64,000 bases of DNA from a phage: the NCBI GenBank assembly GCA_017686895.1, contig GCA_017686895.1_4521.1. One strand, 5' to 3'. The notes beneath the pieces are model-generated. The model ran no database searches. It was not told the origin of the DNA and was given only the letters and a program-made list of their open reading frames with translations. A program made the translations under genes and the position numbers. Positions within the stretch are counted from its first letter, which is position 1; each line of letters begins with the position of its first letter. Shown piece by piece: positions 42,646-57,196 of this stretch.

Positions 42646-43305
42646 TTATTTAGCCCGCCCTAATATCCTTGCTGCTTGGTTGCATATTGCAGCCAAGCGT
42701 TCTTCATTTAGCACATCCGATCCCTTATACCAATACATAGAAACAGTTCCCGCATATATGTTATCCAAATTGAAGTAAGGACAACTATACATATACGCCA
42801 GTTCCGGAGTTTTTGATTTGGTAGGTAAGAAAGCAAAATCTGTTTTAGAAGTAAAGTGAAGTCCACTTAAATGGACCGAATATTCTGCTGTCGTTTTATC
42901 AACAGGAAATCCTCCCATAGATTTTTCAGTTACTGTGCTAGGTAACTTACCTTCATACGCAATAAGGTCGACGAAATAATTTAGATTTTTAGGTCTGAAA
43001 GAATACACCGAACTAAAATCCGCCCTTGATGTGACGTGGACTATTTGTAGTTGTTCTAAAGCCGCAGATTCAAATCGTGTATTTCTTTCTTTTTGAATTA
43101 CTTCTGTGTAAGTATCATATTTCGACCTCACGTAATAATCCATAAAAATATTCCCTTTGTACCATATTAGTGCCATTAGGAACAAAAGAACTACAACAGC
43201 AACTCTTGAAATAAGAATATTTCCAGAGGCGTTATCTTTGAAAATGCGGTCTAGCAACCCAAATAAAATATCACTAGGCGAAAATGATACTTTTGGTGCT
43301 GCCAT
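42646..43305 (-). CDS. t: Holin T
   Basis: Starts MAAPKVSFSPSDILFG (T4 T: MAAPRISFSPSDILFG); start placed at the second ATG after the GGAGG SD. Confidence 0.9.
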   Translation of the reverse strand: MAAPKVSFSPSDILFGLLDRIFKDNASGNILISRVAVVVLLFLMALIWYKGNIFMDYYVRSKYDTYTEVIQKERNTRFESAALEQLQIVHVTSRADFSSVYSFRPKNLNYFVDLIAYEGKLPSTVTEKSMGGFPVDKTTAEYSVHLSGLHFTSKTDFAFLPTKSKTPELAYMYSCPYFNLDNIYAGTVSMYWYKGSDVLNEERLAAICNQAARILGRAK

Positions 43306-43324
43306 ATTACCTCCCATTTATCAA

Positions 43325-43332
43325 TATTTATA
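43325..43332 (-). promoter_or_regulatory. Late promoter TATAAATA for t
   Basis: Exact consensus on the minus strand between gene 38 stop and t start. Confidence 0.55.
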
Positions 43333-54402: not shown

Positions 54403-54718
54403 TATTAAACCGGTTGATGAGGCCGGTTTATCTGAACAAGAATTAGCAGTAAAACACGATAAAGATGATATCGCTAAATTGCTTGACCGACAAGAAAACG
54501 GATTCATTATCGAATCCATGGTTGAACAATTTGGTATGTCTTATTTAGAAGCAACAACTGCTTTCTTGGAAGAAAATTCTATTCCAGAAACACAATTTGC
54601 TAAATTTATTCCTACAGGAATTGTTGAAAAAATTACAAGCGAAGCAATTGACGAAAACATGCTTCGCCCATCAGTTGCTCGTGGTGAAAAAACTAATACG
54701 TTAGATTTCTTATTATGA
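54380..54718 (+). CDS. 33: Late transcription accessory factor gp33
   Basis: 112 aa, same length as T4 gp33; starts MTQFSL.DI.PVDE.GLSE. Confidence 0.85.
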   Translation: MTQFSLSDIKPVDEAGLSEQELAVKHDKDDIAKLLDRQENGFIIESMVEQFGMSYLEATTAFLEENSIPETQFAKFIPTGIVEKITSEAIDENMLRPSVARGEKTNTLDFLL

Positions 54719-55368
54719 TTAAAATACGCATGCCTCCTGATGGAGAACGTTATATTAACGGTAAATCAGTATATAAACTATACTTGATGTGCAAACAACA
54801 TTTTGGTGGTCGGTATGACGTAATCAAATATAACTGGTGCATGCGTGTTTCGGATAATGCATATCAAAAACGCCGAGATAAATATTTCTTTGAGAAACTA
54901 GCAGAGAAATATAAGTTAAAGGAACTCACTTTGATATTCATCAGTAACTTAGTTGCTAACCAAGATGCATGGATTGGTGAGATATCAGACGCTGATGCAT
55001 TAGTTTTCTATAGGGAATATATTGGACGTCTCAAACAAGCCAAGGAGACGTTTGCTGAAGATGTACGTAACATCTACTATTTCAGTAAGAAAGTGGAAGT
55101 TAGTGCGCTTCAAGAGATATTTGATTATAATAATAAAGTTCAGTCGAGCTACATATTTAAATTGCTACAAAGCAATATAATTTCGTTTGAAACCTTCTTG
55201 TTGTTGGATTCATTCTTGAATATTATAGATAAGCATGATGAACTTACTGACAATTTAGTCTGGCAAAATTATTCTACCAAATTAAAGGCATATCGAAAAA
55301 TACTCCAAATCGATGGAAATGCTGCCAAGAAATTGTTCATAGAAACAATAAAATCATGCAAGTATTAA
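54715..55368 (+). CDS. 59: Helicase loader gp59
   Basis: 217 aa; starts MIKIRMP; KYNWCMRVSD.AYQKRRDKYFF conserved. Confidence 0.92.
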   Translation: MIKIRMPPDGERYINGKSVYKLYLMCKQHFGGRYDVIKYNWCMRVSDNAYQKRRDKYFFEKLAEKYKLKELTLIFISNLVANQDAWIGEISDADALVFYREYIGRLKQAKETFAEDVRNIYYFSKKVEVSALQEIFDYNNKVQSSYIFKLLQSNIISFETFLLLDSFLNIIDKHDELTDNLVWQNYSTKLKAYRKILQIDGNAAKKLFIETIKSCKY

Positions 55369-55397
55369 GCTTTATTTCTTGTGTGTTAAAATTACTT

Positions 55398-55405
55398 TAT
55401 AAATA
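55398..55405 (+). promoter_or_regulatory. Late-type promoter TATAAATA upstream of gene 32
   Basis: Exact consensus about 80 nt before the gene 32 ATG. Confidence 0.4.
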
Positions 55406-55415
55406 AATCATACCA

Positions 55416-55484
55416 GCTACGAGGTATAAGTGTCGTAGCAACCAACTGTAAATAAATTAAATAATCTAAATAAAGGTAAATATA
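55416..55484 (+). promoter_or_regulatory. Gene 32 5' leader: hairpin (GCTACGA...TCGTAGC) plus AU-rich repeats, candidate autoregulatory operator
   Basis: 7-bp inverted repeat 55416-55439 followed by TAAATAAATTAAATAATCTAAATAAA; resembles the T4 gene 32 operator layout. Confidence 0.45.
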
Positions 55485-56384
55485 ATGTTTAAACGTAAAT
55501 CTACTGCTGACCTCGCTGCTCAAATGGCTAAACTGAACGGTAACAAAGGTTTCTCTTCAGAAGATAAAGGCGAATGGAAGCTGAAGCTAGATGCATCAGG
55601 TAATGGTCAAGCGGTAATTCGTTTCCTGCCAGCAAAAACTGATGATGCACTACCATTTGCAATTCTTGTTAACCACGGTTTCAAGAAAAATGGTAAATGG
55701 TATATTGAAAATTGCTCTTCTACACATGGTGATTACGACTCTTGTCCTGTATGTCAGTACATTAGTAAAAATGACCTGTACAATACCAACAAAACTGAAT
55801 ATTCTCAACTGAAACGTAAAACTTCTTATTGGGCTAATATTCTGGTTGTTAAAGACCCTCAAGCCCCAGATAACGAAGGTAAAGTATTTAAATATCGTTT
55901 CGGTAAAAAGATTTGGGACAAAATCAATGCAATGATTGCAGTTGATACCGAAATGGGTGAAACTCCAGTTGATGTTACTTGTCCGTTTGAAGGTGCTAAC
56001 TTCGTTCTGAAAGCTAAGCAGGTTTCTGGTTTTAGCAACTATGACGAATCTAAATTCTTAGGTCAATCTGAAATTCCTCGTATTAATGACGAAGCATTCC
56101 AGAAAGAACTATATGACCAGATGGTAGACCTTACTACTTTGACGGCTAAAGACCAGTTCAAATCCTTTGAAAAATTAAATGAATCTTTCGCTAAGGTTCT
56201 TGGTACTGCCGCTCTTGGTGGTGCAGCAGCCGCAGCAGCTTCTGTTGCAGATAAAGTTGCTTCTGACCTTGACGATTTTGATAAAGACATGGAAGCCTTT
56301 AGTTCTGCAAAAACTGAAGATGACTTCATGAGTTCCTCGTCTTCTGATGATGGCGACCTTGATGACCTGTTAGCTGGTCTATAA
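55485..56384 (+). CDS. 32: ssDNA-binding protein gp32
   Basis: 299 aa; starts [36 protein letters not shown]; acidic C-terminal tail. Confidence 0.95.
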
Positions 56385-56390
56385 TAAATT

Positions 56391-56412
56391 GGGAGACTTC
56401 GGTCTCCCTTTT
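56391..56412 (+). terminator. Rho-independent terminator after gene 32 (GGGAGAC-TTCG-GTCTCCC plus TTTT)
   Basis: 7-bp perfect stem, UUCG loop, T-run. Confidence 0.75.
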
Positions 56413-56439
56413 GAGTATCTGTAAATTGCCGAAAAAGTT

Positions 56440-56468
56440 GTTTACTTCTTCCCTGGATGTGTTAGTAT
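56440..56468 (+). promoter_or_regulatory. Early-type promoter GTTTAC-N17-TAGTAT
   Basis: Followed by AGACTTATCAACAAC. Confidence 0.45.
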
Positions 56469-56497
56469 AGACTTATCAACAACATGAGGAAATCAAA

Positions 56498-56890
56498 ATG
56501 GAAATCGGAAAATCTTATATCATTAACCCTTTATTTAAAGACGACTTTGTTCAAGAAGCACCACACAATAACGCTAAGATGTTAAAATTAATTGAACTCC
56601 ACGGGCCTAGTTTTGTTGTAAACGGAATGGAACCTGATTATGATAGCGATACGTCAAACGTAGTAAGTGTAACTATGGAAGATGGTACTGTATGTTCTGC
56701 CGGTGGTGAAATTGAAACTTATTTTGAGATTTATCCTGACGAGTTCAAATACTTTATTGAGGTAGATTTAGTAAAGCCTCAACCTACTAACGAAGGTATA
56801 ACTTTAGGTGTAACAAAAATCCATTGTATCGTAGATGAAACCAACGTCGACGAAATCATCAAACTTTTGCAAAAAACTTTTAAAAAGTAG
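56498..56890 (+). CDS. Hypothetical protein (frd.3 position)
   Basis: 130-aa ORF. Confidence 0.5.
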   Translation: MEIGKSYIINPLFKDDFVQEAPHNNAKMLKLIELHGPSFVVNGMEPDYDSDTSNVVSVTMEDGTVCSAGGEIETYFEIYPDEFKYFIEVDLVKPQPTNEGITLGVTKIHCIVDETNVDEIIKLLQKTFKK

Positions 56891-56927
56891 TTTATAACAA
56901 GATAGGGTTATGTTATAGTAGCCCTAT
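56890..56927 (+). promoter_or_regulatory. Early-type promoter GTTTAT-N18-TATAGT with flanking inverted repeat
   Basis: G of the -35 is the last base of the TAG stop; ATAGGGTTA / TAGCCCTAT arms bracket the -10. Confidence 0.45.
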
Positions 56928-56953
56928 CAAATAAAAGTGAAGAGGAGAATAAA

Positions 56954-57196
56954 ATGAGATTGCAACGCCAGAGCATCAAAGATTCTGAAGTTAGAGGTAA
57001 ATGGTACTTCAACATCGTCGGTAAAGACGCTGAACTTGTTGAAAAAGCTGAACATCTTTTACGCGATATGGGTTGGGAAGATGAATGCGATGGATGTCCA
57101 CTCTATGAAGATGGTGAAAGTGCAGGATTCTGGATTTACCACTCTGATGTTGAATCGTTTAAAGCTGATTGGAAAATTGTGAAAAAGTCTGTTTGA
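56954..57196 (+). CDS. Hypothetical protein
   Basis: 80-aa ORF. Confidence 0.45.
   Translation: MRLQRQSIKDSEVRGKWYFNIVGKDAELVEKAEHLLRDMGWEDECDGCPLYEDGESAGFWIYHSDVESFKADWKIVKKSV

Follow-up and report, generated by a model that had tools for sequence, protein, structure and literature searches.

The Gene 32 Leader of a Mosigvirus Phage: A Probable RB69-Type Translational Operator with Predicted Proximal Promoters

Locus and Gene Context

The window, i.e., the whole 64-kb stretch of DNA that was analysed, shows the highest similarity to the genome of Escherichia phage AlbertHofmann (genus Mosigvirus, RB69 group), with an identity of 98.9%. On sequence grounds, it is DNA of an RB69-like T-even phage of the genus Mosigvirus. 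The leader described here is located inside a gap of 116 nt between the genes of the gp59 helicase loader and gp32, both of which are encoded by the plus strand (Table 1). The order of the neighbouring genes, rnh-dsbA-33-59-32-frd.2 (RNase H, DsbA, gp33, gp59, gp32, and Frd.2), is the T4-type gene order, and the gene of the gp33 late-transcription coactivator is situated 0.8 kb upstream of the leader.

Cooperative single-strand binding by gp32 needs the N-terminal cooperativity segment and the zinc-binding core, the ligands of which are His and Cys residues. The gp32 encoded in the window aligns end to end with the full-length T4 gp32 (PDB 8GME), and in this alignment the two proteins share the N-terminal MFKRKST and have the same residues at H64/C77/C87/C90. 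The level of identity with RB69 gp32 is 93% over 278 aligned residues, and the approximately 20 differing positions are mostly found among residues 180–240. With such a degree of identity, the protein of the window phage would be expected to behave like RB69 gp32.

Table 1. Features of the gene 32 leader and the flanking genes (window coordinates; positions in parentheses are relative to the gene 32 AUG, except for the late promoter core, which is numbered from the transcription start).
Feature	Coordinates	Strand	Remarks
gp59 helicase loader ORF	54715–55368	+	upstream neighbour of the gap
MotA-box-like element aGCTTTA	55368–55374	+	one mismatch to the T4 consensus TGCTTtA; inside the mapped Pm:147081
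−10 element TAAAAT (TAnnnT type)	55387–55392	+	12 bp after the MotA-box-like element
T4-type late promoter core TATAAATA (−13 to −6)	55398–55405	+	exact octamer match
Stem 1, 5′ arm AUACC	55410–55414	+	pairs with 55423–55427
Loop 1, single A	55415	+	invariant in 9/9 homologous leaders
Stem 2, 5′ arm GCUACGA	55416–55422	+	left arm of the inverted repeat in the earlier note
Stem 1, 3′ arm GGUAU	55423–55427	+	G(−61) is 55424, to which the strong gp32 footprint of PMC535899 extends in the 5′ direction
Loop 2 AAGUG	55428–55432	+	same five bases as in T4
Stem 2, 3′ arm UCGUAGC	55433–55439	+	right arm of the inverted repeat in the earlier note
A+U-rich operator segment, A(−45) to A(−1)	55440–55484	+	45 nt, 84% A+U, contains the ribosome-binding site
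AACUGU element	55444–55449	+	directly 3′ of the pseudoknot
Weak hairpin AUCU/AGGU, A(−21) to U(−8)	55464–55477	+	includes the Shine-Dalgarno sequence; in the predicted centroid structure
Shine-Dalgarno AAGGU	55473–55477	+	ATG at 55485
gp32 ORF	55485–56384	+	299 aa; Pfam PF08804, E = 1e-60

The flanking genes of the leader are the same in RB69 (NC_004928), and the gene 59–32 gap has a length of 116 nt in both genomes. Positions 55382–55496, which reach 12 nt into gene 32, are 100% identical to the RB69 sequence, so that TATAAATA, the whole pseudoknot and the A+U-rich spacer with its Shine-Dalgarno sequence are shared without a change. The leaders differ only by substitutions at positions 55378, 55379 and 55381; in addition, there is one synonymous-region change in gene 59.

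A terminator-like hairpin, GGGAGAC-TTCG-GTCTCCC, can be noted at 56391–56408, 7 nt past the gene 32 stop codon. It is GC-rich, has a perfect 7-bp stem and is flanked by a T-rich run on each side, and the terminator scan scored it as a terminator on both strands. It is predicted to end the gene 32 transcription unit, which fits the terminators downstream of gene 32 that are conserved in five of six T4-like genomes (PMC1524935). On the minus strand of the leader, an ORF of 43 aa (55392–55523) and a sigma-70-like match at 55436–55407 (9/12) were considered and rejected, both being at chance level.

Predicted Promoters Upstream of Gene 32

A late-type promoter had been proposed at 55398 in the earlier note on this DNA, and the octamer TATAAATA, the core of T4 late promoters at −13 to −6 (PMC1524935), is indeed present there as an exact match on the plus strand. 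Late promoters of the T4 type depend on gp55, gp33 and gp45. The octamer is not over-represented in the window, where it occurs five times compared with 7.7 ± 2.7 in shuffled sequences. Its placement is far from random. All five copies are non-coding, lie in the sense orientation and precede an ORF by 8–80 nt, two of the gaps concerned being those in front of genes 34 and 36; octamers of the same composition are non-coding just 11% of the time, which gives P ~2e-5 for such a placement of 5/5 copies. One of these copies (43325–43332, minus strand) lies 8 nt upstream of the ATG of a 223-aa ORF (42646–43317). A late start 6 nt downstream of it would leave almost no leader, so that either the start codon or the promoter assignment is doubtful in that case.

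For RB69, a late promoter was predicted at 147025–147067 with a weak score of 7.5 (Pl:147067, PMC1524935 supplement), and this segment maps to 55374–55416 of the window, covering TATAAATA. Given the −13 to −6 rule (PMC1524935), late transcription from this octamer would start near 55411, which is base 2 of stem 1 in the pseudoknot described below. Such a start would remove the first stem 1 base from the late RNA and place a 4-bp stem 1, as in T4, at its 5′ end.

A middle promoter is predicted in the same gap. Middle promoters of the T4 type, which depend on MotA and AsiA, combine a MotA box around −30 with a sigma-70-type −10 element placed 11–13 bp further downstream. The MotA box of T4 has the consensus TGCTTtA, and the MotA-box-like element of the window is followed by a −10 element of the TAnnnT type (Table 1). 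The corresponding RB69 prediction, Pm:147081 (147041–147081), has an HMM score of 18.1 (PMC1524935 supplement) and maps to 55360–55400, the two leaders being collinear and of equal length. The putative MotA-type promoter would start transcription near 55399–55400 and overlaps the late-type promoter; the two promoters had both been predicted for RB69. A generic sigma-70 scan found nothing at this position on the plus strand, which is expected for a promoter without a −35 hexamer. The stop codon of gene 59 (TAA, 55366–55368) overlaps the first base of the MotA-box-like element, and all three leader substitutions relative to RB69 are located between this element and the −10 element.

In each lineage examined, a promoter element can be noted a short and nearly constant distance upstream of the knot. 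TATAAATA is located 4–5 nt upstream of the knot in Mosigvirus (4 nt in the window), Serratia phage CHI14 and Erwinia phage Cronus, whereas the distance is 17 nt in T2; in T2, Marfa and Jiaodavirus, a TATAAT −10 element is found 7–9 nt upstream of the knot. In T4, TATAAATA is as far as 84 nt upstream of the knot, since the homing-endonuclease gene segG lies immediately upstream of the leader; the proximal middle and late promoters of T4 gene 32 are displaced into segG (PMC2988022). The mature 5′ end of the T4 gene 32 mRNA is made by RNase E at −71 (PMC3014915), and this cut gives a similar 5′ end near the knot. Transcripts are thus expected to begin within ~0–3 nt of the first knot base in every lineage examined.

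Pseudoknot of the Leader

The earlier note had described a hairpin following the promoter. The 7-bp inverted repeat on which this description was based, GCTACGA/TCGTAGC, does exist, with 100% complementarity and arms 10 nt apart; however, it is not a plain hairpin but stem 2 of an H-type pseudoknot, the stem 1 of which (AUACC/GGUAU) had been missed. The pseudoknot occupies positions 55410–55439, i.e., −75 to −46 relative to the gene 32 AUG.

Taken alone, the repeat means nothing, because such repeats are common in the window: there are 176 perfect 7-bp inverted repeats with a loop of 3–20 nt, compared with ~108 in shuffled sequences. Nor is the pseudoknot architecture evidence by itself, since a scan with a loose pseudoknot pattern matches ~70 places on both strands of the window. 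The minimum-free-energy fold of 55406–55500 contains stem 2 only (−8.6 to −9.4 kcal/mol) and is not significantly better than those of shuffled sequences, but this z-score of −1.27 is uninformative, because the folding algorithm cannot represent pseudoknots. An Rfam search of positions 54500–57000 (cmscan, E-value mode) found no family at 55398–55484 and gave only chance-level matches elsewhere, so that no independent curated model is available for the leader.

Sixteen annotated phage records supplied gene 32 leaders for comparison, and further leaders came from viral contigs of IMG/VR, where the 29 closest of 80 loci were scanned. Nine distinct leaders of six phage lineages made up the covariation set, in which T4, T2, Mosigvirus, Klebsiella Jiaodavirus, Klebsiella phage Marfa, Serratia CHI14 and Erwinia Cronus are represented. 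Pseudoknots of identical layout were found in Tequatrovirus, Mosigvirus, Jiaodavirus, Marfa, CHI14 and Cronus. Written in the order of the elements in Table 1, the knot is UGCC-A-GCUAUGA-GGUA-AAGUG-UCAUAGC in T4, UGACC-A-GCUAUGA-GGUCA-UACAUCG-UCAUAGC in T2, GUCC-A-GUUGCAA-GGAC-CCAUG-UUGCAAC in Klebsiella Jiaodavirus, AUGCC-A-GGUGUGA-GGCAU-UAUG-UCACAUC in Serratia phage CHI14 and UACC-A-GAUGCAA-GGUA-AUG-UUGCAUC in Erwinia phage Cronus. The junction bases CC-A-G...A-GG are invariant across the lineages.

A fixed-frame alignment was used, in which loop 2 was padded with N. An initial MAFFT alignment was set aside, because the length of loop 2 varies from 2 to 7 nt and the 3′ arm of stem 1 was consequently misaligned. 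Standard base pairs were found in 95.4% of the pair cells of the nine-leader alignment, a fraction that is inflated, as eight of the nine leaders first surfaced in a pairing-based scan (the Jiaodavirus leader was spotted by eye). Stem 2 is 100% paired in the nine leaders. The outermost pair of stem 1 is unpaired in five of them, because real flanking bases were used for the fifth pair. Compensatory two-sided changes were revealed in 7 of the 12 pairs (27 cells), of which three belong to the five pairs of stem 1 and four to the seven pairs of stem 2. When the 3′ partners were slid by 1–3 columns as a control, pairing fell to 26–47%.

The selection bias of the pairing-based scan is partly answered by selecting the homologues again with the junction motif CCAG-N5-AGG alone. 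All nine distinct leader contexts obtained in this way have complete pairing, with seven of seven pairs formed in stem 2 and four of four in stem 1. Three further matches of the motif are located inside coding regions of distant phages, and their pairing is incomplete.

Not all T4-like phages possess the knot. Among the leaders compared, it is absent in those of Gelderlandvirus, Karamvirus, Dhakavirus, Gaprivervirus, Krischvirus, Slopekvirus and Bragavirus, in agreement with the published absence of a gene 32 leader pseudoknot in RB49 (PMC535899, PMC3014915). A different arrangement can be noted in the Yersinia phages fHe-Yen9-01 and TG1, ~40–90 nt upstream of gene 32. The equivalent of stem 2 (GGUGUAG/CUACAUC) is kept there, the canonical stem 1 (xxxCC/GGxxx) is gone, and a different helix, AAUGAA/UUCAUU, surrounds the stem 2 5′ arm. 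Read by eye, this variant would be an H-type knot with much longer loops.

A+U-Rich Spacer and the AACUGU Element

The segment between the knot and the start codon was described in the earlier note as a run of (T)AAAT repeats up to the Shine-Dalgarno sequence, which agrees with its composition: it contains six UAAA units, of which five are UAAAU, together with the AAGGU sequence. This cluster is unusual, being the sole 45-nt stretch with at least six UAAA units on either strand of the window; when the spacer was shuffled with its composition preserved, six UAAA units were reached in only 16 of 20,000 shuffles. The weak hairpin that includes the Shine-Dalgarno sequence (Table 1) is worth just −0.6 kcal/mol by itself, and no other stable structure is predicted in the spacer. 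An identical hairpin was proposed for RB69 on the basis of the protection of U(−20) and G(−10) (PMC535899).

The AACUGU element just downstream of the knot also occurs in genera that have no knot. Of 21 genus-level representatives, 16 carry ACUGU within the final 60 nt of the gene 32 leader, which makes it as frequent as the UAAA units and the Shine-Dalgarno sequence. These 16 include knot-less genera, in which AACUGU is repeated two to three times and reaches into the coding end of gene 59. Across the leaders, the usual form of the element is AACUGU[U/A]AA. In Karamvirus and Gelderlandvirus, neither of which has the knot, AACUGU occurs three times inside the last codons of gene 59 (...KTVKNCKY). 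In the literature examined, AACUGU was not found as an operator unit; the units mentioned there are UUAAA/UAAA alone.

Comparison with Known gp32 Operators

The RB69 leader is one of the known gene 32 operators: it was probed, footprinted and functionally tested in 2004 (Borjac-Natour, Petrov and Karam, Virol J 1:4, PMC535899). In that RNA, the pseudoknot segment is sensitive to RNase V1, while the A(−1) to A(−45) segment is unstructured, hypersensitive to DMS/DEPC and insensitive to RNase V1. RB69 gp32 gives a strong footprint between U(−14) and G(−61) and a weak one between U(−2) and G(−9), and the protection of the same leader by T4 gp32 falls mainly between C(−42) and G(−61). Deletion of the leader or mutation of gp32 leads to ~4-fold higher expression, purified gp32 represses the in vitro translation of RB69 mRNA, and the gp32 proteins of T4 and RB69 each repress either mRNA (all in PMC535899). 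The bases named in that work, namely G(−61), A(−45), C(−42), A(−21), U(−20), G(−10) and U(−8), are the same bases in the window.

A likeness to the operator through which T4 gp32 represses its own translation had been suggested, together with a comparison with the T4 leader, and the shared layout bears it out. The T4 operator consists of a pseudoknot at −67 to −40 and UUAAA/UAAA repeats (review PMC3014915). It shares with the window a stem 1 of 4–5 bp, the 1-nt loop A, the 7-bp stem 2 and the AAGUG loop 2; the same CCAACUGU follows the knot and is succeeded by UAAA-type repeats and the ribosome-binding site. Stem 1 is AUACC/GGUAU in the window and UGCC/GGUA in T4, and a C-G pair of stem 2 corresponds to a U-A pair in T4. 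The repeat unit is UAAAU, that of T4 being UUAAA, and the spacer is 45 nt long as opposed to 39 nt in T4; the RB69 leader was described as having an additional 6-nt sequence (PMC535899). The weak hairpin at the ribosome-binding site is possible in the RB69 type only and not in T4 (PMC535899).

The T2 leader resembles that of the window in its H-type knot with a single-A loop 1, in the absence of segG and in having gene 59 directly upstream. It differs in loop 2, which is 7 nt long (UACAUCG) compared with 5 nt in the window, and in stem 1 (UGACC/GGUCA). The NMR structure of the T2 pseudoknot (2TPK; Holland et al. 1999, as described in the review PMC3014915) has two coaxially stacked stems. The hairpin operator of T4 gp43 and the rpsO/S15 pseudoknot of E. 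coli are more remote parallels: in both, a nucleic-acid-binding protein represses its own mRNA through a structured part of the leader close to the ribosome-binding site (PMC3014915), whereas their sequences and proteins are unrelated to those considered here and there is no cooperative polymerisation along an A+U-rich track.

Discussion

By its sequence, the leader belongs to the family of T4-type gene 32 translational operators and is the RB69 version, unchanged. We consider that the gene 59–32 gap contains the translational operator of gene 32 of an RB69-type T-even phage together with the proximal promoters of the gene, and estimate the probability of this reading at about 0.93. The downstream ORF encodes gp32, the layout of the knot is shared with T4, and the leader is identical to the RB69 operator. 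Binding of gp32 was reported on an identical RNA (PMC535899), and conservation of the structure is indicated by the covariation described above; both results go against the outcomes, no gp32 binding or no structure conservation, that the earlier note had named as refuting its reading.

Several other explanations of these elements were weighed. The repeat might be a plain stem-loop, consisting of stem 2 only, that stabilises the 5′ end of the gene 32 mRNA against RNase E or exonucleases, with no pseudoknot recognised by gp32. Stem 2 alone is what the minimum-free-energy prediction gives, and the gene 32 mRNA has an unusually high stability, with RNase E processing immediately 5′ of this structure in T4 (PMC3014915). 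This explanation is nevertheless very improbable, as stem 1 covaries as well, with two-sided changes in three of its five pairs, and the junction bases, which a simple hairpin leaves unexplained, are invariant. Moreover, a pseudoknot structure has been solved for the homologous RNA of T2 (2TPK, via PMC3014915), and the RB69 gp32 footprints cover the knot segment (PMC535899). A stabilising role is also compatible with the operator role and is no true alternative to it. No more probable is the view that the A+U-rich repeats act only as a translational enhancer or as the site of another regulator such as RegA, with no gp32 track; A+U-rich leaders generally favour initiation, and RegA sites are A+U-rich and located near start codons (PMC3014915). 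Against this stand the strong and the weak gp32 footprint on the identical RB69 RNA, the repression of translation by the same protein (PMC535899), and the fact that no other such UAAA cluster exists in the 64 kb.

Least probable of all is that the hairpin is the intrinsic terminator of gene 59, or that the elements arose by chance in A+T-rich intergenic DNA. The repeat is located 48 nt past the gene 59 stop codon, and both the 7-bp repeats and the TATAAATA octamer occur in the window at chance-like frequencies. However, the stem is followed by AACCAAC and not by a U run, and the terminator scan found nothing at the hairpin; a gene 59 terminator was excluded on these grounds. Chance, which accounts neither for the identity with RB69 nor for the compensatory changes that have kept the structure in six lineages, was excluded as well.

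The accepted model of gene 32 autoregulation rests on the preference of gp32 for ssDNA over operator RNA and for operator RNA over other RNA (PMC535899, PMC3014915). Applied to the window, transcripts that enter the gene 59–32 gap or start in it would carry the knot and the A+U-rich track, with the ribosome-binding site within the track. As long as ssDNA is available, gp32 would prefer it, and the gene 32 mRNA would be translated. Once free gp32 exceeds the available ssDNA, the protein would nucleate at the pseudoknot or next to it and then polymerise cooperatively in the 3′ direction along the 55440–55484 track. The Shine-Dalgarno sequence and the AUG would thereby be covered, and initiation would be blocked.

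Two features of the compared leaders, the placement of promoters so that transcripts begin at the knot and the conservation of AACUGU(U/A)AA, were not found stated in the literature examined. Possibly, they are design rules of gene 32 leaders; we put this forward tentatively and regard it as rather doubtful. The first would mean that a 5′-terminal knot is required, perhaps for the stability of the mRNA as well as for gp32 nucleation, and AACUGU(U/A)AA could be the ancestral or primary recognition unit of gp32.

The control exerted through the gene 32 operator is a textbook example of how a protein gauges its own free concentration. The presence of the operator here confirms that this Mosigvirus keeps the RB69 version, which is useful for annotation and is not a discovery. 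The comparative gain is modest: the knot covaries in at least six T4-like lineages, the hosts of which are Escherichia, Klebsiella, Serratia and Erwinia. What gp32 recognises was listed as an open question in a 2010 review. The several genera that lack the knot and retain AACUGU and UAAA units provide, together with the knot-bearing lineages, a panel for addressing it.
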